NCBI GenBank assembly: GCA_964016885.1
Contig: OZ024756.1
Location: forward strand, 20,584,001 to 20,648,000
Length of the DNA stretch: 64,000 nt
Reading direction: 5' to 3'
Source: Eledone cirrhosa
Taxonomy: Eukaryota
Positions within the stretch are counted from its first letter, which is position 1. The number at the start of each line of letters is the position of its first letter. The notes beneath the pieces are model-generated. The model worked only from the letters and a program-made list of their open reading frames with translations. It was not told where the DNA came from and ran no database searches. This document shows positions 3,856-62,754 of this stretch, in pieces. The position numbers and the translations under genes are program-made.

Positions 3856-4247
3856 TCATCATCATCATCATACGTCCGCTTTTCCCTGCTTGCAAGGGTG
3901 GGACGGGAACTGATTCTGGCTTGATCTCTACAGCTGGATGCCCTTCCTAACACCAACCTCATTTACAGTGAGTGCTGGGTGCTTTTTTTTTTTCCGTGCC
4001 ACCTCCACGACCACTCTACAGTATGGGCTGGGTGCTTTTTTTTTGCCGTGGCACCTCCACGACCACTTTGCAGTGGAATGATAGGGACCCCAGTCCCTAT
4101 CATCTCATTTCTACAGCTGAGTAAACTGGAGCAATGTGAAATAAAGTGTCTTGCTCAAGGAAACAACACATCACCCGGTCTGAGAATTGAACTCACAACC
4201 TTTCGATTGCAAGGCCAATGCTCTAACCACTAAGCCATGTGCCTCCA
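3856..4247 (-). mobile_element. tRNA-derived SINE (family 1), with an internal duplication
   Basis: Reverse complement of 2199-2544. Confidence 0.85.
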
Positions 4248-4423
4248 TGCCTATATATATATATAATTGGTGTGGGATGCTTAAAGCGTCCGTAAGTGGT
4301 AGGCCGATTGAGCACTCGATGCTCTTACAGAATATAATATTACATAAGAAACGGAGAATCAGTGGTGCTACGAATAAAATTTATTAGACATTCGTAGCAC
4401 CACTGATTCTCCGTTTCTTATGT

Positions 4424-4475
<52 letters not shown>

Positions 4476-4717
4476 CAAAGGGATATTTAATTTGTTGGTA
4501 ATTCAACAAATATATATATTTATAACAGATTCGAAGCACTTGACAGGTTTTCTGGAGTATAATATCAATGATATTAATAAATGGAAACTATATTTATAAA
4601 ACCATATTTATTCTATTATATATATTTCAAGGGTACCAAAACTTTGGTACGCTATCTGGTAAAACTTGAACCGTTAAGGTCTCATTCCTGGATAAGTCAA
4701 TATTTATAAAAACTCTG

Positions 4718-4778
4718 TATTTTATCTGATGAGAGCGTACCAAAGTTTTGGTACCCTTGAAATATATATAATAGAATA
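4718..4778 (+). ncRNA. Minimal type I hammerhead ribozyme motif (family A)
   Basis: Stem I TATTTTAT/ATAGAATA, CTGATGA at 4726-4732, stem II GAGCGTACC..GGTACCCTT, GAAA at 4759-4762, palindromic TATATA stem III, predicted cleavage after AUA (4770). Confidence 0.8.
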
Positions 4779-4819
4779 AATATGGTTTTATAAATATAGT
4801 TTCCATTTATTAATATCAT

Positions 4820-4857
<38 letters not shown>

Positions 4858-5729
4858 TTCATGAATAATTTTTCCAAACATAAAACATCTCAGGTGACGA
4901 ACGGTGTCTCAAGTAATGAACACGCAAACCAGCAACAACAGTTGGCAACAAGCTGGGAGTATTGGTGGGAAAGTGTCACTTGCTGTGTAGTTAGTTACTA
5001 TGGTGATATTTATCTGTCTTTCACAGTCCCCCTCTCTCTCTCTCTCTGTCTGTATTTTTCTCTCAACATTTTGTATGGGAAAAGGTTTTGGTTTACAAAC
5101 ACTTCAGTTGACAAACAGCTTTCAGGAATGAATTAAGTTTGTGAACCAAAGTTCCACTAAATGTGTATAATACCTGTACACACACACACACGCAAATACA
5201 CAAATATACATATACACACATAAATATACAAATATATCATCATCATCATCATCACCATCACCATTCTACGTCCATTCTTCCACGCGAGCATGGGTTAGAT
5301 TGGGTTGTCCTGTTGTGGGCAATGCCAGGTCGGGTGACCTTGTCTTGCTCATATGGGAACTGATTTTGGATTGATTTCTACAGCTGGATGGCCTTCCAAT
5401 ATATATACACACATAAATACACAAATATACATACACACACACACACATAAATACACAAATATACATACACACACACATAAATACAAATATATATACACAC
5501 ATAAATACACAAATATACATACACACACATAAATACACAAATATACATACACACACATAAATACACAAATATACATACATATACACACATAAATACAAAT
5601 ATACATACATATGCACACATAAATACACAAATATACATACATATGCACACACAAATACATAAATATACATATGTACACACACAAATATCTATATCTATAT
5701 ACATGTACATACACACAAACATGTATGTG

Positions 5730-6981: not shown

Positions 6982-7320
6982 GGAGGCACATGGCTTAGTG
7001 GTTAGAGCATTGGCTTTGCAATCGAAAGGTTGCGAGTTCAATTCTCAGACTGGGTGATGTGTTGTTTCCTTGAGCAAGACACTTTATTTCATATTCCTCC
7101 AATTTACTCAGATGTAGAAATGAGATGATAGGGACTGGGGTCCCTATCATTCCACTGCAAAGTGGTCGTGGAGGTGCCACGGCAAAAAAGCACCCAGCAC
7201 TCACTGTAAATGAGGTTGGTGTTAGGAAGGGCATCCAGCTGTAGAAATCAAGCCAGAATCAGTTCCCGTCCCACCCTTGCAAGCAGGGAAAAAGTGGACG
7301 TAAAATGAAATGATGATGAT
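6982..7320 (+). mobile_element. tRNA-derived SINE (family 1)
   Basis: Near-identical to 2199-2544, flanked by (TA)n. Confidence 0.85.
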
Positions 7321-12469: not shown

Positions 12470-12500
<31 letters not shown>

Positions 12501-12984
12501 TAACACAATAGATTAAAGTTTAAGCAAAGTATCGCTGCTTTAACCCTTAACGGGAACTTATATATTATCCTTATCGAGCCCGCTTTGGATTTTAGTCTTC
12601 ACATTTATTATTATTTATATATATGGTGTCCGACCCTCTACCGATACTGCCAATCCACCGCCTCATAATAAAAAAAATAATAATAATAAAATTATTGTGT
12701 ACAAGTGCTCAGGTATATATATATATATATATATATAAATATATATGTATATATATGTATAGAATGAGAGAGATAGGGACAGACAGACATTATAGAGACA
12801 GTCTTTATAGAGAGAGAGAGAGAGAGACATTATAGAGAGAGAGAGAGAGAAAGAGAGATACATTATAAAGAGAGATTTTAGAGACACAGAGACAGTTATA
12901 GAGAGAGAGAGAGAGAGAGTGTGTGTGTAGTTTAAAGAGTCTGGATGATAAAGTAATAGTAAAAGTAATCAAGATTGGACATGA

Positions 12985-13540: not shown

Positions 13541-14216
13541 TCTTTTATGTATCCAATCTACATATATAAACAGAATATAGTCATTCCTCACAATTGAGTA
13601 TGACTTGGTATCAACATGTACTGTATATCTTGTGTTTGTGCAAGTGCATGGATTAGAAGTTAAGGCATTCAGTACAAGATTGAAAAGTTGTGATTTTGAT
13701 ATCCTGGTGTGTGTTGTCTCCTTGAGCAAGATATTCTATTTCTCGTTGCACAAATAATTAGTCAAAAAGGTTAAATTAGATAAAATGCACTTTAGTTTTG
13801 TGCCAAGAAGGGCCACCACAAATACCCTCTTTTTAATGAGACAACTACAAGAGAAGTTCCTAGCCAAATGTAAGCCACTATATCTAACTTTCGTTGGTCT
13901 GGAGAAATCCTTTGACAGAGTACCACAACCTGTTCTCTGGTGATCCTTAACCTTCTGGAGGTTCCGGGCGCATTAAGTCGTCGATGGAGTAATCTCCCCT
14001 TGATACATAATGCAGTGGCAAGGGAAGCAATTCATAAAAATTTCTAGCGTGCTAAAGGTTAGGGAGTAGAAAATATGCTTGTGAAAGCACTGCAAACCAA
14101 TTACAGGGGAGCTGTCAGTAAAGTGAGAGAGAGTAAAGAATTTAGTTAGAAATTCAATGCAGGTTGGTGTTCAGCCCTTCTCTTTGTTATACCTCTCCAG
14201 ACCCTAACAGAGGAGT

Positions 14217-14446
14217 TTAACCCTTTAGCATTTACATTACTATATATATATACTATTGTATTTTCATGGTAAACCCTTTATCTCACATAATTATCCCACA
14301 TAATATCGAATCTACAAGATTTTGATATTATTTATTTTGAGAACAATACCTTAACATAAGTATGAGTGGCCAGTTACAGCCAGTTTGAACAAAATGAGAT
14401 GAGAGAATTCTGGCCGGATATGGCCGGTTTAAATGCTAAAGGGTTA
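14217..14446. mobile_element. TTAA-flanked MITE (piggyBac-like) inserted in decayed LINE RT-like sequence
   Basis: TTAA-CCCTTTAGCATTTA ... TAAATGCTAAAGGG-TTAA terminal inverted repeats. Further copies at about 22047-22486, 46516-46630, 56155-56328, 56514-56671 and 61930-62120. Confidence 0.8.
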
Positions 14447-15835
14447 AGACTTGCTGTTCATGGGAACTTATGTATGATAACAAACTGGTTCTTATGGCTG
14501 AATCTGGAGAAGAACTAGAGTAGAAATTCCAGCTTAGAGTAAATTTAGCAAAAACCAAAGTTTTAGTAAGTGGAGAAAGAAGTTAGGATCCTGATCCCAT
14601 CAGGGAAATGGTCTTGCTCAATATGTAGAAATTCTATATGATATACTCAATGTAAATCTTATTAGTGCTAGAGCCAGATTAAGTCTTTTTTGAGCCCCTA
14701 AGCACTTAAAAGATTATTCTATGTGTCTGTGTCCTACATATATGAGAAATATATTTAATTGAAATAAAATAGTACCCCTATTAGCTTGGTGCCTTAAACG
14801 TGTTTGTCTTGCTTAATGGTAAATCCTGTCCAGCTAATGGCTGCAAAGTGACCACCATATACAGCAGACAGTAAGAGGTTTGGTAGGAGAGAAACACTGA
14901 CAGAGATGAGATGATTTTATATATATATATATATCTTTTATATATATAAGAGAGAGAGAGAGAGGGGGGGGGAGAAATAGAGATGGGAATAGGTGGACAA
15001 AACAGACAGAAAGACACAGAGCGAGGGAGAGAGAGAGAGATGGGAAATGGTGGAAAAGAAAAAGAGAAAATAAGAGATAGGAGGTTAGAAAAGAAGATGG
15101 AAAGAAAGAGATAAATAAGTACGGGAGAGAGAGAGAGAGAGATTAGAAAAGGAGAGAGAGAGAGAGAGATTAAAGGACGGTGGAAGGAGAGAGAGAAGAA
15201 AAGACAAACAAAGACAACCAGAGAAGGGAAAGAAAATATCTAAACAATGATTTGTTAATATAGTGACAATATTTTGAAGTACACACATACACAGACACCA
15301 GCACACATGCTAATACATACACACACACAAGCACACACAACCCCACACACACACATACACAGCCATACAGACAGACACACACACAGACACATACACAGCC
15401 ATACACACAGACACATACACAGCCATACACAGACACATACAGACACACACACAGACACATACACAGCCATACAGACAGACACACACAGACAGACAGACAT
15501 ACGCACACACACACATACACAGCCATACAGACAGACACAGACACATACACAGACACACACACATACAGCCATACAGACACAGACACACAGCCCCACACAT
15601 ACACAGCCATACAGACACACACAGACAGACAGACATACGGACAGACACACACACACACAACCCCACACACATACACAGCCATACAGACACACACACACAC
15701 ACACAGCCCCACACACATACACAGCCATACAGACACACACACACACAGTTGTTTTTGTTGACCAATCGTTTACAACAATGAAACACCTACAAATATTGTA
15801 ACAGGAGAGAGTAACAACAAAAGGTTTTATCAATA

Positions 15836-17760: not shown

Positions 17761-18350
17761 TTGTATCACTACATCAATAGCCTGCGCATCGGTGTTTCCT
17801 TGAGGCTCGGCCTCCGGATCTGCGAGCCACACCAATGTCGCTGCGGATCCACTGTGGACCCTTTCGGCCTCCACCCGCTTTCCTGTCGCCACAGTGCCGG
17901 CCGCCTTCCACGCCATGCTGCCCTCAACGAGGTCATAAAGCATGGCTTGGACGCTGCAGGCTTCCCTTCCCAGTTCGAGCCGGTGGGGCTGGACCGAGGG
18001 GACGGCAAAAGGCCAGATGGCATGACGATCTTCTTGTTCCGTGGTGGCAAACCCCTTGTCTGGGATGCTACTTGCACCGACACTTTCTGCGGCCGCAACC
18101 TGGTGCAGTCTGCGACTGACCCAGGTTCTGCTGCACGTCGGGCTGAAGAGGCCAAGCCCCTCAAATACTGGTCACTCTCCGACAGGTTTGTGTCCTCGGC
18201 CCCAGGGCTACCTCCCTACTCACCACCATAGGCGCTGAGCTGGCCAGCCGCAGCTGTGAACCCAGCGAGTTGGAGTGGCTTTTCCCTTGCTGTCCTCCGC
18301 GGGAACGCCTTCTCCATCCTGTCCGCCGGGGCTGTGGGGGGGCCCCATCA
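17761..18350 (+). mobile_element. CRE-like non-LTR retrotransposon 3' fragment (Cys/His finger plus restriction-like endonuclease)
   Basis: HQCRCG..GLHPLSC..GRLPRHAALNEVI..EPVGLDRGDGKRPDG..LVWDATCTDT. GC-rich island, disrupted near 18190. Decayed relatives at about 41115-41480 and 53366-53540. Confidence 0.8.
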
Positions 18351-18583: not shown

Positions 18584-21012
18584 ATTAAACATTTCATACG
18601 CTTATCAAAGGAGTGCTTAATTATTGGAATATATAAACTGCTACTGCCACAGCCAAACAGTAATATTGAAAACAAATTCAAAATATAAAATATTTTTAAA
18701 AAAACGCCATAGCAACAACTGTCAAACCTACAACCTTACCACCATAGCCACCACCACACCACCACCATCACTATTAGCAACACCACCACCACCACCATCA
18801 CACCACCAACATCAACATCACTATTAGCAACACCACAACCACAACCACCACCACCACCACCATAGGATTCTCTACCTGTGTGTTTGTGTGTATCTGTTTC
18901 AATCTCATATATATGTGTGTGTGTGTGTGTGCATGTTTCACTATTGTGTGTGTGCTTCAATCTCATCTATATATATGTGTGTCTGTGTGTGTGTGTAAAT
19001 TCCCGAGTTGTGTCAAGGGGTAATCACAGTTAAAAAAGGGTACTCAATACATTGATAGAGGCATTTTTATTAAATATAGAAATGACTTCTACAGGACTAG
19101 AACTGTTTCATTCATATGAAATCATCAGGAATGTCAGATATACAGGACTCAGGAATGTTAGATATACATATATATATATATATATATATTTTTAAAAACT
19201 CGGGACATCCAATGGACATGTGGTTAGAATGTCTCAGGAAAGAATCGCTGGACAGATCTGTAGCTCGGAGATCAGAGAGTCACTCCAGGTAGAGCCACTA
19301 CTTCTCCAAATTGAGAGATCACAGCTCTGATACTATGGGCATGTGGTTAGAATGCCGTAAGAAAGAATCGCTGGACAGATTTTATGGGCGAAACCAACTG
19401 GCAAGAGACCCAGGGGTAGACCCTGAGCAAGATGGTTAGATAACATCCATGAGCTTGGCTGGTCTCGCTTGGAGATCCAGCCGGATCAGTTGGAGATGGT
19501 TGCTTCTGACAGGACCCGCTGGAGGGAGTGTTTGAGGATGCCCCCATGACCTTCTCAGGAATAAGTGAGCAAAGAAGGGAACATTCAAGAAGTTTTCCTA
19601 AAAAAAATTTGTGGATCCCTTTCTGAAAAAGGTTGTGCATCATTCTTCTGTGCAGTTGTATGTGAAAGTGCAGCTGTGCACCTCTTGAAACTCACTTAGC
19701 AGCTTAGAACCTTTGATACCAAACCTCCTGAAACTTTCAGCAGGTTCTATGATACTATGTTGTTTATATTTATTTTAAAACCTTCCATCATAATTTCATG
19801 TAATAACCTTTGTTATGTTTCAAACATCAGCTAAACAATGAGAAGTTTAGTTGGATTTAGTTTTAATTCAATAAGATATAAAACACCCAGTCCACTCTGT
19901 AAAGTGGTCATACTGGTGACATGAGAAATACAGCACTCAGTCCACTCTGTAAAGTGGTCATACTGTGACAGAGAAAGCACCCAGTACACTCAGTAAAGTG
20001 GTCATGTTGGTGACACAAAAAAGCACCAAGTTCACCCTGTAAGGTGGTTATACAGGTGACACCATGAAAAAGCACCCAGTCAACCTTGTTAGATGGTTGC
20101 TTCATTGCAATGATAAAGATCACCCAGTCTACACTGTAACGTGGTTGGCATCCAGCCATAAAAGCCAAGCTAAAATACAGGCCCATATGAGCAAGACGTG
20201 GTCACCTGAATTGACTTGTCCCAATACCTGATAAACCTATCTAACCCATGCAAATGTGGAAAAATAGATGTTAAACGAGAACGATGACGATTTAAAATTA
20301 AGAAATTAACCATGCATTGTATAAGAATGATATAAAGAACAGAAGTAGGGAGGCGATCCAATTGGCATGGGCCTGGCATTTTGAGAGGGCCTATGATTGA
20401 GACAAAGAAGGGGACTCTTTGGTAAAAAATTACCCCTTTTTTTATAAACCATTCCAGTTCTTTTAGTCCGTTTTGTTACATATACTCGGGTCTCGAAAAA
20501 TCGCCCCTCCCCCTTCCCACTTAATATTTCAGACCCTTTCTTCCTACCCTGCTCTTATTCCAATGCCCCCACTTATTAAATTAGGCTAATCTGTCTCCAG
20601 CAAAATTTTTATTCAAGTGGTAGCATTCTTGCGACATTGAATTTTCTTTAGACATTCATTAAAAGACATTATACATGACCCCAAAAGTACATTACTAGAA
20701 ATCCCATACATCATAAAATAAATTGAGGAGGATGAGTGACCTCAACATGGGCAATCTGTGACCTCAAGATGGAGGACAAGTGACTTCAACATGGAGAACC
20801 AGTGATCTTGACATGGACAATCTGTGACCTCAAGATGGAGGACAAGTGACCTCGACATGGAGAACCAGTGATCTTGACATGGACAATCTGTGACCTCAAG
20901 AACTAGTTTAGTGACCCCTCAATACCAACAGCTTTGTTAATGGATTTTCTTTTTAATGAAATTTTGCAGGTGTATGGTTTTCCATGATGTAGATTACAAT
21001 AATGTTAATGGA

Positions 21013-21058
<46 letters not shown>

Positions 21059-22046
21059 CACACACAGGAGAGAGAGAAAAATTTTACCTCTCTATATACC
21101 CTCTCTGCATTGAGTACTCCCATGATTTGTGGTCTCCTCGGTCTCAGCACTACAGACTCTCAAACTCTCTAAATATATATATATATATTAAAATAACAGA
21201 TTAAAGTTTAAGCAAAGAATCGCTGCTTTCACCCTTAATGGGATCTCCTGAAGGGTGAAAGCAGCAATTCTTTGCTTAAACTTTAATCTGTTATTTTAAT
21301 AAATATTTGCTCTAGGGTTCTTATATATTTGATATATATTTATCCTTATCGAGCCCTCTTTGGATTTTAGTCTTCAAATTTATTATTATTACTATATATA
21401 TATATATATTTATATATTATTTCAAGTATTACATCAAAGCTGAAACTACAATAAGGCAACACGAGTTGAATTATCTGAGAGAGTCCCTAAACACACTCAA
21501 TGATGCGAGAAATGAATTAATTCCGCCATCAGAGTGAACACATTAAGGAGGGGAAACACCATGAATAATATATAGACCAGGTGTATGCCAACTATAGTAT
21601 ATAAACAATGACGAACATATATATATATATATATATATGAACAGTCGATCAACAAGATCCCAGATCTCATTCGCTTAATGAGTGGGGTGGAGCTCGTCAA
21701 ATCGGACCAAGGAATCAATGTTTCCATTGGTCTGTCCAATTGCTAATACAATCTACCGGTCACTTAGAATCCTCAAACACTCCTTCCAACAGATCCTGTC
21801 AGAAGTAACAGTTTTTAACTGATTCGGCTGGATCCCTAAGCGAGACCAACCAAGCCCATGAATGTTATCCAACCATCTTGCTCGGGGTCTACCCCTGGGT
21901 CTCCTGCCAGTTGGTGTTGCCCATAAAATAAATTAATAAATAACAAATAAATAATGTTTTATTTCTTTTAAATTTCATGGACATAAACCTAATCTAAACT
22001 TTTGAAATTGTAGATCAGCAAAATTTAATTTTAAAAATATTCATTG

Positions 22047-22486
22047 TTAACCCTTTAGCAATATATTACTCTATATATACTATTGTATTTTCATGTTAAC
22101 CCTTTAATGTTCAAACCGGCCAAAACCAGCCAGAATTCTCTACCTCTTTCTGTTGAAACTGGCTGTAACTGGTCACCAAACTGATGTTAAGGTATTGTTC
22201 TCAAAATAAATACTTTCAAAATCTCATAGATTCGATATTATGTGAGATAATTATCCGAGGTAGAGCCTTTACCTTGAAAATTATATAGAGTAATGTGAAT
22301 GCTAAAGGGTTAAAGGCTTTATCTCACATAATTATCTCACAATATTGAATCTACAAGATTTTGATATTATTTATTTTGAGAACAATACCTTGACATCAGT
22401 ATGAGTGGCCAGTTACGGCCGGTTTGACTAGAAAGAGGTGGGAGAATTCTGGCCGGATATGGCTGGGTTAAATGCTAAAGGGTTAA
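22047..22486. mobile_element. TTAA MITE nested in a copy of itself
   Basis: Outer copy 22047-22486 is interrupted by an inverted inner copy at about 22097-22313 at a TTAA site. Confidence 0.65.
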
Positions 22487-29400: not shown

Positions 29401-29588
29401 AATAGCACTGAATAATATATATATATATATCTATATATATATATATGTGTGTGTGTGTAGAAGTTCTATTTAAATTGTTGGGATACAACAAGCAAATATT
29501 TTTATAACTGATATAAAGCACTCAACAAACTATTGGAGTAAAAATACGATATATTAACAAATGGAAACTATATTTATAAAACCATATT

Positions 29589-29653
29589 TATTTCATTATA
29601 CATATTTCAAGGACACCAACTTAAATTATGGTGTGCTTTCATCAGATAAAATA
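29589..29653 (-). ncRNA. Minimal type I hammerhead ribozyme motif (family A)
   Basis: Minus strand reads TATTTTAT CTGATGA AAGCACACC..GGTGTCCTT GAAA TATGTATA^ATGAAATA. Confidence 0.75.
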
Positions 29654-29875
29654 TAATATAGATCAGTTTTATAAATAAATATTGACATACTCTTAAAGAA
29701 TGCGACCATTTCTGTTGGAAGCTCCCGGATAGTGTCCTTGAAATATGTATAATGAAATAAATATGGTTTTATAAATATAGTTTCCATTTGTTAATATATC
29801 GTATATATATATATATATATATATTTATTATATTTTTGTTTTTCAAATCCACTTTCAATAAATACACCAGGATTT

Positions 29876-29935
29876 TTTCATTCTGATGACTGAAAGCAAA
29901 TGTGTTTGCTTTCAAGAAACCACTGGTAAATGAAA
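29876..29935 (+). ncRNA. Type I hammerhead ribozyme motif (family B)
   Basis: TTTCATT CTGATGA c-TGAAAGCAAA tgtg TTTGCTTTCA-a GAAA CCACTGGTA^AATGAAA. 7-bp stem I, 10-bp stem II, GUA cleavage triplet. Confidence 0.8.
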
Positions 29936-30260: not shown

Positions 30261-30364
30261 TAGGTAATTCCGAAGAAAAAGCAAAGGGAAAAAGAGTGCT
30301 CTATGTATAGAACAGAGCTATTTAATTAGAAAGTGAACAACACACTATATAGAGTTTTTATCAT

Positions 30365-30432
30365 CTCTGTCTGATGAACGATCTAGACATATATCAATAT
30401 TGTCTAGGGTCCAGAAACCTTTGGTAACGGAG
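30365..30432 (+). ncRNA. Type I hammerhead ribozyme motif (family C)
   Basis: CTCTGT CTGATGA ..GATCTAGACA..TGTCTAGGGTC.. GAAA CCTTTGGTA^ACGGAG. Base of stem II is mismatched. Confidence 0.65.
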
Positions 30433-30470
30433 TAGTTATATATTGTGTTGTTCACTTTCTAATTAAATAT

Positions 30471-30508
<38 letters not shown>

Positions 30509-31422
30509 TTTACGTCCGCTTTTCCCTGCTTGCAAGATATATATATATATAATTGTTTCTACTTTTGACACAAGGCCAGCAATTACCTCAGTACATTACT
30601 GGTACTTTATTTTATCGACCCCCGTAAGAATGAAAGGCAAAGTTAACCTCGGCAGGATTACAAGGGTGAATGGTTACTCCTTCATTACGTTTATTGGTTG
30701 GTGACGCGCATTTCGCTACTGATCAGCTCAAGGTTTGGTCTGTATCGATCTAGCCTGACTCTGGAATCAAAAGCTCGTGGGACCTCTGTGGTAGTGATGT
30801 CAGAATGAAACACAGGTGAGCCTACAGTAACTCTGCATCACACTCCCTGGATATATATATATATGTGTGTGTGTCTGTGTGTGTGTGTATGTGTGTGTGT
30901 TAAGTATTTCCGTAGAAAAGGTAAAGGAAAGAAAGACCTCTGTGGTAGTGATGACAGAATGAAACACAGGTGAGCCTACAGTAACTCTGCGTGACACTCC
31001 CTGGATATATATATATATGTGTGTGTATGTGTGTGTGTTAAGTATTTCCGTAGAAAAGGTAAAGGAAAGAAGAGTGCTCTATCTATAGTACAGAGCTATT
31101 CAATTACATAATAAACAACATAATATAATTATTCCATTACCAAAGGTTTCAGGAAACATGAAACGTCCAGCTCGTTCATCAAATGAAACAGTTAGCATAA
31201 CTCCTTCATAGTCAGCCTGTGAACTCTTCAGTGGACCCTTGTATATATATATATATATATATATCATATATATATATATATATATGATACAGTGAATTAC
31301 TACTAGTGGTGGTACCAATTTGAGCACTCGAACCACAGGCAGAATGTATATAATAAGAAAAAAGTTTTGTTTACATGTTCTTATGTTTCTCTTGAGTTTC
31401 AACCGTTACATGCGTTTCACAG

Positions 31423-31568: not shown

Positions 31569-31910
31569 TCATTCATCATTCATTTCATTTTACGTCCACT
31601 TTTCCCTGCTTGCAAGGGTGGGACGGGAACTGATTTTGGCTTGATTTCTACAGCTGGATGCCCTTCCTAACACCAACCTCATTTACAGTGAGTGCTGGGT
31701 GCTTTTTTGCCATGGCATTTCCACGACCACTTTGCAGTGGAATGATAGGGATCCCAGTCCCTATCATCTCATTTCTACAGCTGAGTAAACTGGAGCAATG
31801 TGAAATAAAGTGTCTTGCTCAAGGAAACAACACATCACCCAGTCTGAGAATTGAACTCACAACTTTTCGATTGCAAGGCCAATGCTCTAACCACTAAGCC
31901 ATGTGCCTCC
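31569..31910 (-). mobile_element. tRNA-derived SINE (family 1)
   Basis: Reverse complement of 2199-2544, flanked by (TA)n. Confidence 0.85.
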
Positions 31911-31971
31911 ATATATATATATATTATTCAAAATATTAATAAATGAAAAATATTCTCATAACCAAAATATA

Positions 31972-32034
31972 TATTTTATTATACATATTTCAACGGTACA
32001 ATGGTGTTTAAGTACATTTTCATCAGATAAAATA
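31972..32034 (-). ncRNA. Minimal type I hammerhead ribozyme motif (family A)
   Basis: Minus strand reads TATTTTAT CTGATGA AAATGTAC..GTACCGTT GAAA TATGTATA^ATAAAATA. Perfect 8-bp stem I. Confidence 0.7.
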
Positions 32035-32619
32035 TATGAGAGATTGGATATGCGACATACCGCCAAGGTTTTGATTATTCAATTCCTGTAGTGGAATTGA
32101 ATACATAAGTCTTGTTTATGGAAGACCAACAATCACCCATGCATATCAGTCTCCCCTGTCCATGCCACCGATCTTGTCCAAGGGAAAGGCAAAGGCCAAT
32201 ACAGCTTGGCACCAGTGACTTTGCAACTCATTTCTTCACCTGAGTAAACTGGAATAACATGTAATAAAATGTCTTGCTCAAGGTCACAATGCATCACCTG
32301 GTTCACCTGGTCCAAGAATCGAACTCACAACCTCCTGATTGCAAGCCAGCCCGATGCTCTAATCTCTAAGACATGTGCCTTTACACACACACACACACAC
32401 ACACACGTGTGTGTGTGAATGTGTGAGCCCCGGGTGCAGCCACAGTAAGGTACTCAATACATTAGTAGAGTGTGTACAATAAATTTAATATAGAAATGGC
32501 TTCTACAGGTCCGTTTCCTGATGATTTCCTTTGAATGAAACGGTTCTAGTTCTGTAAAAGCCATTTCTATATTAAATTTGTTATATATATTATATATAGA
32601 CACACACGCGAACGACAAA

Positions 32620-45900: not shown

Positions 45901-47379
45901 TAATATAATGCAGTTGTAGTGTTGTTTTATACTTTATAAGAATGTTTTGTTAATGTAGTTTTAAGAGAGAAAACATCCTTGAAAAGTACATTCTTTGTTA
46001 CACACTTGCCACCTTTTCTACCTAAAGTGTTGTTATCAATTATTTTTATCTTTACACCAAGAAGTGGATCTGTTCTAGAAAGAGTTACATCCAATTGTCC
46101 ATGAGAAAATACTAGTTTACTTCTCTTTGCTTTTCCAGTATGGTTGTTATTAAAATTATTGAAAATATATGTATATAGCAAACATTTAAAACTATCTTAA
46201 CTATGGATTGAAATCGAAGATATATTCTATGTATAGTATTATTTTGCTCCTGTATCCCTATATTGATAATGCTTTAATAAATCTTAATATTCTGTACTTT
46301 CTAACCAAATTGTGATACTGCTTTCTGTAACATCTGTTTTGTTTGCTCTCTGTAGTATATGATGAAAATATGTTGCCTCCATTCCTTCAAAATCATATTT
46401 TAACCTACATATCATCCTAAATTACTAGTAGTTCTGTATCATCAGGAGATAGTTTGAGGAAATCTTCCTGATATTTATACAATACAGAAATGAAATGTGA
46501 GAAAAAGCAGTCATTAAACCCTTTAGCATTCACATTATTCTATATATCCTATTGTATTTTCACAGAAAAGGCTTTATCTCACATAATATCAAATCTACGA
46601 GATTTTGATATTTATTTTGAGAACAATACGTTACTGTAAAAGCTAGGGAATTCTGGCATAGTTAATTTACCATCAGGTGTCAAGACTCAGGTGTGATGAC
46701 TTCATTCTTAAAAATTAGGTTATTCCAGTATAATGACCAACAGAACCAAGTTTCACTCCCATTATACACTTGAGAAATTAGGGGCTCTCACTCCTACTTA
46801 AATTATTTAATTTCACCCTGGATTATTTGATTTCCTTGATTGGTGAGCTGCCAGCTTCAGCATGGATAATTTATTTAATTAGAAATATGGTCATGAAAGG
46901 GTTAATTAGAAGAAGGACCTAGATTTAATTATTCAATTAGAAATATGGTCATGAAAGGGTTAATTAGAAGAAGGATCTAGATCTAATTATTTAATTAGAA
47001 ATATGGTCACGAAAGGGTTAATTAGAACAAGCAAGGACCTAGATGTTATGGAGTATTGAAACTCATCTTGCAGAGTATGAGACCAACTTATATTTTCCAG
47101 GCTTACACAAAGATTTGAACTCAGTACTATAAACTAACAAGACATCCAATCTGCTAAAGTGACATGAGAAATTAGTAATATAGATTTAAGGAATCTACTA
47201 TTTTAGTTAGTGTTCTACCCCGATGTGGCCATAATACAAAGCACTTGTCCACCTGTACAAACACTATAACAGAAAAACTAAATATAGTGAGTGACCAGTG
47301 GCTACAATGTTGCTGTTCAAACAGGGACAATATAGAGTTTGAAAGGACCCTTCAGTCTGGGTGAACATGTGACAACCTC

Positions 47380-55126: not shown

Positions 55127-57609
55127 TGATAGATGAAGTAGTAGGTCGTAGAGATTTAGGAAACTACACTTTTGATAAAACACAGAGAGAATGTATGTAT
55201 AAGGAGTAGAGTTATATGGTGTGTATATATATATATCAATTATGTGTTGTGTATATATCAGTAATATGGAGTGCACATGTCAGTAATATATTGTTAGGAG
55301 AGTATATAAAGAGTAGAATTATATGGTGTGTATATATCAGTAGTATGGAGTGTATATATCAGTTATATATTGTGAGATGATAATGAAAGATGGGCAATGG
55401 AAACAGAATAGGAAGAGAATTGTGGGAGGAAGTGGGTATTGATAGACATTAGACTGGTGTATATGGAGGGAGAGAGAGAGAGAAAAGGGGTATTGAGGCA
55501 TTAGATTGATGTATATGGAGAGAGAGAGAGAAGGGGGTATTGAGGCATTAGATTGGTGTATATGGAGAGAGACAGAGGTATTGATAGACATTAGATGGGT
55601 ATATATAAAGATGCACTGTAAGTGTTAGGTCATAAGTCCACTTAATGTTCAGCTAAGTTTTGTTTAACCCAAAATAAACACATCTCCGCCTTCATTGTAA
55701 ATTATAAGATCAATAGAACTGCATAGTTTTTACCTTAGGTAGGGAGCAACTGAACAGGTGTTTACATAAATAGTAGCTCCCTTATTGGGTTTCTTGTGGG
55801 AGTAGTATTAGGGTTAAATTTAGATCTCTTCTAAGAATAGTTTCAATAAATGTTTGTGTCAAGACACTGGGTACAAGTATAGGTGTAAAAAGCATCTTGT
55901 AGATGGAGTCAAAGAACTGATTCCTTGTTTTGGGTTTCATTTGTTTCAGGCCATTGTTTGAAAGTTAAATCTAGTTACTGCTATTAATATGGCGTCAGCC
56001 AAAGATGTACCGATTCTATTCAACTAGCTTTATAAACCAATATATATACACACACACACCTACAAGACATTTCTGTTGACCAGCTTTACCAATATGGTTT
56101 TATAGTAAAAAATATATTATAATATAATTAACAACACATCTCAGGTACTTAGATATTTAAACCGGCTGTATCTGGCCAGAATTCTCTCACCTCTTACTGA
56201 TGTTAAGGTATTGTTAGCAAATTAAATAAAATATCAAAATCTCAGTTTTGATATTATGTGAGGTAAAGACATTACTGCGAAAATACAATAGCATATATAT
56301 AGAGAGTAATGTAAATGCTAAAGGGTTAATGACTATTTTGCTGACCTGTCTGATAGTGGTCAAAGAATAAATGGAGATCAACTGATGACCTATAATGTTG
56401 CCCTAGTTTGTCAGTGTGAGGCTGTTTATATAAATGACAAAAAATATTTAACCCTTTTGATAACAACCCTGCCAAAATCCTGCTCTGATTCTATGAAGCT
56501 AAACCATACATATTAACCCTTTGGCATTTACATTACTCTATATATATTATATTTTCATGGTAAAGGCTTTATATCATATAATATTGAATCTATGAGATTT
56601 TGATATTATTTATTTTGAGAACAATACCTGAACATCAGTATGAGTTGTCAGTTTAAATGCTAAAGGGTTAACGGATTCCAACTGATGGAAAACGTAGTAG
56701 AGGAAGACTTGGTTGGACATTTATTGATCAACTCTCATATGATACAAACTGCAGTAGGAAACAGTTGCCAGGAGCAATGGAAAATGGTGGATTGTAGAGA
56801 GACTATGGTCACAAATACGATTTAGATAAAATTCTTCCAAAATAATTATATATAAGAACCATATTTTAGTGATGAACCATTAATAATTCTAGTAAATCCC
56901 TCAAAATACTTCATTAATCAATTGACATAGTGTATTTAATTCGACATAATTTTAGTAAATTCCTCCAAATTCTTCATTAGTTAATTGAAGTGGAGTGTAT
57001 TTAATTAGAAATACAAACTAATTCGTTAATATTATAATTGCATATTATATTACTTTCAGATCTGAAACCTAAAACTGTTTTAACTGACAAGCTGCTGTTT
57101 AGAAGTCTGTCTAGATTTTCAGGCTGTTTACATAAATAGTAGCTCCCTATTGGGTTTCTTGTAGGAGTAGTATTAGGGTTAAATTTAGATCTTCTCTTCT
57201 AAGAATAGTTTCAATAAATGGCTGTGTTAAGACACTGGGTACAAGTATAGCTGTAAAATATTTGTTATTGTGTGTATAAAGCATCTTGTAGATGGAGTCA
57301 AAGAACTGATTCCTTGCTTTCGGTATCATTTCTTAGTTAAATCTAGTTACTGCTATCAACACTGCCACAGACATGGCTTTATAATAAAACATTTCAAAGA
57401 AGACTATTAAAAAGTTATGGAGAATATATTTCAAATAGAAATATTAGTGTTTTGGGCTTTGAGATTCTATTTTAAAACTAAAAATATCATTTCTATCTCA
57501 GTAGAAATTGGGAATGTTTGCGAGGTGGTGGTGAGGGTAGTAAATTTAGTTCCTTCTCAACAAATAACATAATAATCCCCTTATTTGCTTATCAAGTGAG
57601 GTGGAAGGT

Positions 57610-61826: not shown

Positions 61827-62488
61827 CTTTTAATTATTTCCTGTGGAATCACTATAGGATGTTAGGAGTTAAAAATGAATATTAGGTGTAAACAAACTAT
61901 TGCTCACCGTGTTTTTTGATTCCTTGTTCTTTAACCCGTTAAGCATTTACATTACTCTATATATACTATTGTATTTTCAGGGTAAAGGCTTTATCTCACA
62001 TAATATTGAAGCTATGAGATTGTGATGTTATTTATTTTGAGAACAGTACCTTAGCATTGATATGAATGGGCAATTACGGTTGGTTTGAACAAAAAGAGGC
62101 TAGAGGATTCTGGCCAGATGCTAATATAGAGCCACAATCAATACAAACCTTTAGCTATGGAACTGAAACTTCTATCATGAGATTTCTTACATAACATTAA
62201 TGGTTTTTAATTACTCTTGAGAATAATTATTAGCAGGTTGGTATTTAGAACATAGCTTAACAAAGGTTTTTTTAGATAAATATAAACACATTAAAACAAA
62301 GTTTTGTGTCTTATTTCTAGGGGCAGTTTCAGGCATGTTGATAATAAAAAAGGGTCAAATCATTTTCATAGGTTTTTAGATAAATATAAACACATTAAAA
62401 CAAAGTTTTGTGCCGTATTTCCAGGAGCAGTTTCAGGCGTGTTGATATCAAAAGGGTTAAGTTATTTTTATTCATATTTCATGTATAG

Positions 62489-62616
62489 AACTGCCAGCTG
62501 GAAAATCTGTTCGTATATTAGTTGGATTTACAAATGGTGGTAAGGCTGACTTCACAGTTGACACGATGGAAGCATCCCTTAGATATCCCCAAGACTTCTC
62601 ATTTTATATCCAAAAT
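62489..62616 (+). CDS. SSR1: TRAP-alpha exon 4 (ELPAGKSVRILVGFTNGGKADFTVDTMEASLRYPQDFSFYIQN); gene continues beyond window
   Basis: Diagnostic LVGFTN...ASxRYPQDFxFYIQN motif, TAG acceptor and GTAAGT donor. 128 nt, phase 1 to 0. Confidence 0.95.
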
Positions 62617-62754
62617 GTAAGTATATCAATTTCCTGAAATATAATTCTTTATTGTGTATGTGATTATGTTTTTGAATTCTTTTTTTAAAAAAAAAGCCTC
62701 ACAGTATAGTGTGTGTGTGTGTGTAAGATGTCATATATATCTATCATCATCATC

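Follow-up and report, generated by a model that had tools for sequence, protein, structure and literature searches.

A short hammerhead-bearing element inserted head to head in a (TA)n microsatellite: a likely Penelope-like insertion with an arm predicted to block the ribozyme

Results

The inverted repeat and the hammerhead motif

The window analysed here, i.e. the whole stretch of 64,000 nucleotides, contains at 4562-4825 two arms (4562-4653 and 4734-4825) that are complementary at all 92 positions, or over 95 nt with one mismatch if the pairing is extended inward. They enclose a loop of 80 nt (4654-4733), in agreement with the original prediction of a near-perfect inverted repeat of about 90 bp. 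The catalytic box CUGAUGA (4726-4732) was located within this loop, where it had been placed, and the right arm was found to hold stem II as claimed, except for the first base (G4733), which falls outside the arm. The insertion had been taken to begin at 4562; the left arm does start at this position, but the insertion reaches further to the left through a tail of about 90 nt (4472-4561). The fold of the inverted-repeat stretch had an energy of -146.3 kcal/mol (z = -23.9), and none of 200 shuffles was equally stable. The features of the locus and of two further copies of the same family (copies 2 and 3) are listed in Table 1, the locus at 4562-4825 being hereafter named copy 1.

Table 1. Features of copy 1, its flanks and the two other family copies in the window.
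Feature	Positions	Strand	Remarks
(TA)n microsatellite, left flank	4427-4472	.	Likely target site, judged from sequence
3' tail, about 90 nt	4472-4561	-	Carried by the left (broken, inverted) copy alone; matches the tail of copy 2 in 61/91 columns
Left arm	4562-4653	-	Inverted, 5'-truncated copy of the element, broken where stem II starts; in + strand RNA, antisense to the ribozyme
Junction, where the complete copy has its fixed 5' start	4653-4660	+	Start common to copy 2; nine listed contig joints end at 4655-4663
Loop, upstream part of the element	4654-4717	+	Matches copy 2 in 55/88 columns over 4653-4725
Hammerhead stem I, 5' strand	4718-4725	+
Catalytic box CUGAUGA	4726-4732	+
Stem II	4733-4758	+	10 pairs, one C.C mismatch, closing G.U at 10.1-11.1
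Right arm	4734-4825	+	3' part of the complete, tail-less copy
GAAA box (4759-4762), palindromic stem III (4762-4769) and predicted cleavage after A4770 (AUA)	4759-4770	+
Hammerhead stem I, 3' strand	4771-4778	+	8 bp with 4718-4725
(TA)n microsatellite, right flank	4822-4855	.	Judged from sequence; the right arm ends directly in the run
Copy 2, head to head	29460-29804	-	Copy on - (core 29645-29639) complete and with tail; copy on +, from 29732, broken and without tail
Copy 3, solo	31915-32040	-	Core 32026-32020; the short 3' end runs into (TA)n; 84/119 columns identical to copy 1

As read from its sequence, the segment 4718-4778 (+) is a type I hammerhead with a palindromic stem III, for which cleavage is predicted. 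Five hammerhead motifs were found in the window with the full descriptor and none in each of 100 composition-preserving block shuffles. The palindrome of stem III is ATATATAT in copy 1 (4762-4769) and ATATGTAT in copies 2 and 3, the latter with two G.U pairs in the dimer. CUGAUGA, GAAA and AUA are retained in all three copies, across which 94.7% of the 57 cells in the hammerhead helices pair, as against 38.6-52.7% for slid structures. Two pairs of stem II are altered on both sides among the three copies; covariation is weak, since 53 of 500 shuffles scored as high. Stem I can be extended by a further 12 bp through pairing of 4700-4711 with 4786-4797. The pair 10.1-11.1 is G.U in copy 1 and A-U in copies 2 and 3, unlike the usual G-C pair, and the activity of the ribozyme is therefore uncertain; there is no extra base at 9.1. 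At the gathering score, Rfam gave no hammerhead match in the window (the sole match was one tRNA), and the 31 sub-threshold matches obtained for 4200-5000, up to E = 10, were of the hairpin type, with no ribozyme among them. No CUGANGA catalytic box is present on the - strand of 4472-4825.

Flanks and other copies in the window

(TA)n runs were found at the 3' ends of the family copies. The depth of public contigs (see below) rises near 4564-4581, and loose ends enter AT-rich DNA near 4571-4579 and 4477. The same (TA)n run from which the tail of copy 1 departs is the end of a perfect 34-bp inverted repeat with a 14-nt spacer (4342-4423), whose best Rfam scores were those of sub-threshold miRNA models and which is possibly another short fold-back insertion.

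Two of the three family copies are arranged head to head, none forms a head-to-tail tandem in the window, and at both fold-back loci one of the copies carries a tail. The arms of copy 2 are complementary at 73 of 73 positions, with the break in the 3' half of stem II. Whereas the arms are identical within each locus, those of copies 1 and 2 share 66 of 75 positions, which indicates that both arms of a locus arose from one template in one recent event. The bases shared at the own junctions of these two fold-backs amount to only about one.

Other hammerhead-like sequences were also observed. A second family, with a 3-bp stem III (A-CC...GG-U), is present at 30292-30469 (+), 29876-29935 (+) and 31050-31190 (-). 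The first of these is arranged head to head, with the whole ribozyme inside the loop and the tail on the left copy; the last is a solo copy with an altered core, and a candidate fold-back within it (31070-31156) was dropped, no inverted repeat being present. A third CUGAUGA...GAAA family with a short stem II was found at 32449-32610 (+) and 19020-19140 (-); the former has a head-to-head layout in which the loop holds the core and a tail lies on the left, and it fails the full hammerhead descriptor.

Folding with and without the left arm

The original prediction had proposed that RNA folding be compared with and without the left arm, and had held that hairpin and ribozyme folds exclude each other in a + strand transcript. 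The computation bore out both the exclusion and the role of the arm. In + strand RNA with both arms the pairing probability of stems I and II was 0.0, and the hammerhead fold cost 56.9-60.4 kcal/mol. Removal of the left arm lowered this cost to between 3.0 (stem III open) and 6.5 kcal/mol; stem II was then formed with a probability of 0.73-1.0 and stem I only partly (0.13-0.16). When the RNA with both arms ended just past stem I the cost was still 51.7-55.2 kcal/mol, and for copy 2 the values were 39.4 kcal/mol with the arm and 2.6 without it. Thus, the left arm is predicted by these models to block the hammerhead fold in read-through RNA. The stem III palindrome had been said to need dimerisation. 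Intermolecular pairing is possible, the double-hammerhead dimer having an energy of -27.8 kcal/mol, but the best unconstrained duplex, which is inactive and runs through stem II, is more stable (-32.2 kcal/mol).

Junctions in public contigs

Contigs of four runs (X1, X4, X5 and X7) among the 13 listed were aligned at 80% likeness to 4474-4733, which includes one arm only. X1 and X5 bear the same organism label and come from different samples, and X4 and X7 come from other organisms. Among the 13 runs (10 holders, 6 studies) no RNA holder is listed, which has no bearing on expression. Matching contigs numbered 6310 in X1, 644 in X5, 6 in X4 and 7 in X7; from the first two counts the family is abundant in the organism of X1 and X5. 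The family motif gave no exact match in metagenome and viral contigs.

In nine listed joints of X1 (eight of the 12 rows of a filtered joint table plus one further row, each joint being one contig with a depth of 4-14) a broken left copy meets a copy that starts at 4655-4663, a region in which detection is favoured because the reference loop begins at 4654. The left copy breaks at 4513, 4518, 4519, 4545, 4566, 4568, 4616, 4623 and 4623, so that three of the nine joints reach the ribozyme (4616 corresponds to 4771, and 4623 to 4764). The remaining four rows of the table are an internal deletion, joints to 4685 and 4706, and an ordinary run from core to arm. TAT followed by (C/T)CA was read at all six printed joints, and both fold-backs of the window have the same start. 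Five X5 contigs extend upstream of 4658, so longer forms of the element exist. The depth of X5 relative to X1 falls from 3.4% to 0.5% across 4564-4644; this fall was left out of account, since contig depth cannot rank the parts of the element.

One X1 joint at 4616 (= 4771) and one X4 contig at 4617 (= 4770) have 5' ends at the predicted cleavage site. These 5' ends were dropped as evidence, since the left copy contains 19 TAT ends, of which 4616 is one, and the X4 case is a single contig. In X5, a loose end at 4611 belongs to a fold-back whose sense part, like that of the X4 contig, starts within a base of the predicted cleavage site; both are single cases in AT-rich sequence.

Two other explanations of the inverted repeat were considered. 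The fold-back at 4562-4825 could be an artefact of assembly: none of the contigs listed bridges the exact junction of copy 1, and short-read assemblies are described in PMC8557442 as troubled by PLE inverted structures. The same layout with different breaks was, however, present in the contigs of public runs, and three more loci of the window show it with their own sequence variants common to both arms, which makes an artefact highly improbable. The second explanation, a MITE or other DNA transposon with terminal inverted repeats that contain a hammerhead by chance, would account for the inverted arms, the short spacer and the TA on both flanks. Against it, the ends are unequal, with a tail on one side and arm lengths of 92 and 73, and in all four runs there are contigs in which a sense copy runs from the core into the arm (joint 4653/4733). 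Together with the variable joints, the solo copy 31915-32040, which has no arms, largely refutes this explanation, whose probability is close to negligible.

Sequence variants in the arm

The inverted repeat had also been proposed as a possible ADAR substrate. At four of seven listed rows the variants of the arm were more than tenfold more frequent in X5 than in X1, and all four are A>G or T>C. T>C at 4589, 4591 and 4597 reached 22, 41 and 31% in X5 (0.16, 0.61 and 0.14% in X1), and A>G at 4587 reached 5.4% (0.47% in X1). The three T>C changes correspond to A>G on the sense strand at 4798, 4796 and 4790, each after U. In the low-depth tail three of 15 variant rows were also enriched tenfold in X5, two of them being of other types. 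The kind of run is unrecorded for X5, whose sample differs from that of X1, and the excess could also stem from a few dominant loci. These edit-like sites are at the level of the family and not of the locus, and 4790 and 4796 also lie within the 12-bp helix of the element itself. ADAR editing of the family arm is regarded as a lead only: the proposal finds a family-level excess of A>G and T>C in the single run X5. Heavy editing of Penelope repeats in a lizard and X. tropicalis is described in PMC5625713 and PMC10636886.

Other features of the window

Several further features were recorded. At 21181-21306, 56-bp arms (54 positions matching) follow (TA)n with a geometry like that of PLE fold-backs; this sequence has a solo relative at 12482-12560, and no hammerhead core was seen. 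A perfect 70-nt palindrome at 1451-1520 is centred on a (TA)n run, in a tail-to-tail geometry. The multi-copy element at 22096-22486, with long inverted arms ending in TTAACCC...GGGTTAA and relatives at 14216-14449, 46495-46633, 56155-56671 and 61929-62119, is presumably a piggyBac-like MITE. The tRNA-like head of a SINE family is present at 31840-31903 (-), about 6990-7050, and 4180-4245 (Rfam tRNA, 29.1 bits); the (TA)n in which copy 3 (31915-32040) ends adjoins the first of these heads. The only clear Pfam match among 272 frames was an exon of the translocon-associated protein alpha (TRAP-alpha) at 62461-62634 (+) (PF03896, E 4e-10). With microsatellites and tRNA-derived repeats besides this exon, the host genome is animal-like and may resemble octopus DNA. 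A non-repetitive frame at 17780-18230 (+), which ends a low-complexity ORF and has Cys/His clusters and a 'KRPDG' motif, gave no Pfam match; we take it to resemble a fragment of a retrotransposon RLE endonuclease.

Discussion

The evidence presented here makes it likely that two copies of a short, high-copy hammerhead element lie head to head in a (TA)n microsatellite as an insertion of a non-autonomous Penelope-like element (PLE) of the pLTR type, and that the left arm is a by-product of integration whose silencing of the ribozyme is predicted to be incidental. None of the 272 window frames of at least 50 aa matches a Pfam family of RT or GIY-YIG, as expected for solo or non-autonomous copies. 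No such frame being linked to the element, its membership of the PLEs rests on the layout and the ribozyme. According to PMC8557442 and PMC3846280, PLEs are marked by microsatellite targets, a tail that is not always present, and a 5'-truncated copy lying inverted at the 5' end, and by this analogy the locus behaves like a PLE solo pLTR insertion. Recently active Penelope families have been described in an octopus in PMC13282606, whose main text does not mention ribozymes.

Comparison with known systems reveals both likenesses and differences. The PLE pLTR (Pen2a_Av) is likewise arranged head to head, with one copy 5'-shortened and the tail on one side only, and shares with our family the microsatellite target and the hammerhead inside the repeat (PMC3846280, PMC8557442). 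The repeat unit is of about 170 nt here and of 193-218 bp in A. vaga (PMC3846280, PMC8557442), and the tail of about 90 nt here compares with 30-40 bp in PMC8557442; moreover, here no ORF lies between or beside the repeats, the target duplication is unreadable in (TA)n, and the start of the complete copy is fixed.

The minimal type I hammerheads of PLEs have a long helix II and a palindromic helix III, show low activity even as dimers, and have been reported close together on opposite strands (PMC4209133). Those of our family share with them the CUGAUGA and GAAA cores, the long helix II, the short palindromic helix III, the occurrence mostly as single or opposite-strand copies and the predicted activity as dimers. 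They differ in helix I (4-5 bp in PMC4209133, 8-11 bp here), in a helix II of 10 pairs with an internal mismatch, and in that all three copies lack two typical features of the hammerheads of PMC4209133, the G10.1-C11.1 pair and an extra base at 9.1.

Non-LTR retrozymes, for which mobilisation by PLEs has been proposed, are likewise non-coding elements of low GC and 150-450 bp with a type I hammerhead (PMC7229834; bioRxiv 10.64898/2026.07.22.740005). They form, in the same accounts, head-to-tail tandems with at least two same-strand ribozymes and release circles, whereas each of our three copies is either solo or part of a head-to-head pair. A tight dsRNA of their own is also supplied by self-folding repeats that ADAR edits, namely Harbinger in Xenopus and Penelope in lizard and X. 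tropicalis (PMC5625713, PMC10636886); by comparison, the hairpin described here would arise from the geometry of insertion, and its editing is a lead.

At the junctions one copy has a fixed start while the other breaks at varying places; there are two 3' ends, and either copy can carry the tail. This pattern speaks for two cDNAs, each primed on its own, that annealed at a short TAT. Such a route would agree with the biochemistry of PMC11167929, where a PLE protein in purified form is reported to cleave both strands and extend them on uncut RNA without need of ribozyme cleavage, the tail being defined by two internal sites in the RNA at which the protein starts. In the proposed mechanism, the PLE endonuclease would cut both strands in TA-rich DNA, and from each DNA end a separate cDNA would be primed on element RNA left uncut, at the short 3' site in one case and at the tail site in the other. 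One cDNA would extend to the fixed 5' end of the element RNA, and its terminal ATA would anneal to a TAT in the other cDNA, which would be trimmed at that point. The place of annealing would be accidental, and the arm would thus cover all, part or none of the ribozyme. Any read-through RNA would then fold into a long and perfect hairpin that keeps the ribozyme from forming and that ADAR would be likely to edit, while the ribozyme would have its role in the RNA of the parent element, probably as a dimer. In LINE-1 twin priming, too, both DNA ends prime and the products are joined by microhomology. That process inverts one RNA without duplicating its 3' end, whereas here the 3' region is present in both copies and the result is a true inverted repeat.

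An alternative within the PLEs is that the inverted copy is a by-product of self-priming, in which one cDNA, or an antisense RNA, folds back at a palindrome. Such a process has been proposed for the inverted junctions with palindromes of rotifer Penelopes (PMC3846280), and it would fit the location of both window junctions at or within the stem II hairpin. However, in copy 1 the broken copy has the 90-nt tail and the complete copy lacks it, so the former was not copied from the latter by fold-back; the broken copy of copy 2 stops at the same short end as the complete copy of copy 1; and six of the nine listed joints break far from stem II. On these grounds self-priming seems unlikely.

The idea implied by the original prediction, a designed antisense control of the ribozyme, found no support: the arm is an inverted, 5'-truncated second copy, its break varies, and most of the listed fold-backs miss the ribozyme. 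The corresponding explanation is an evolved, riboswitch-like device in which the arm keeps the ribozyme inactive and is relieved by unwinding or editing of the hairpin, or by transcription that begins in the loop. The folds do exclude each other by 57-60 kcal/mol, the cleavage site is covered in both window fold-backs of the family, and the arms are perfect. Perfect arms are nevertheless what is expected of a young insertion, and an energy gap of this size would suggest a lock rather than a switch. The fold-back at 30292-30469 leaves the whole hammerhead in the loop, and with six of the nine listed joints missing the ribozyme its coverage is not kept, which makes an evolved switch very unlikely. 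Silencing by the arm is likely to be incidental.

The favoured reading, a PLE insertion joined from two cDNAs, can be taken further, although with little confidence. Under this tentative and rather doubtful extension, the family would be a PLE 'SINE', young, non-autonomous and present in very many copies, whose 5' end is fixed and whose 3' end is of two kinds. Its fold-backs would record two-ended priming joined at TAT, and the way in which PLE inverted insertions form could then be studied by counting over thousands of junctions. The family would also yield perfect ribozyme-locking hairpins that are a main ADAR substrate of the animal, comparable to inverted Alus but produced in one step, and some copies may start at the cleavage site and so record ribozyme activity in vivo. 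The literature search found no antisense-controlled pLTR hammerhead and no two-ended priming model for PLEs, in sources whose supplements may hold such structures.

Taken by itself, the locus is an ordinary young PLE-type insertion, and inverted truncated copies, tails, pLTR hammerheads and Penelope editing have already been published. The fixed start, the variable breaks guided by TAT and the swapping 3' ends discriminate between two-ended priming and self-priming, a point left open by the PLE papers cited here. An A>G excess confirmed in RNA against matched DNA would make the family a defined source of dsRNA as well.
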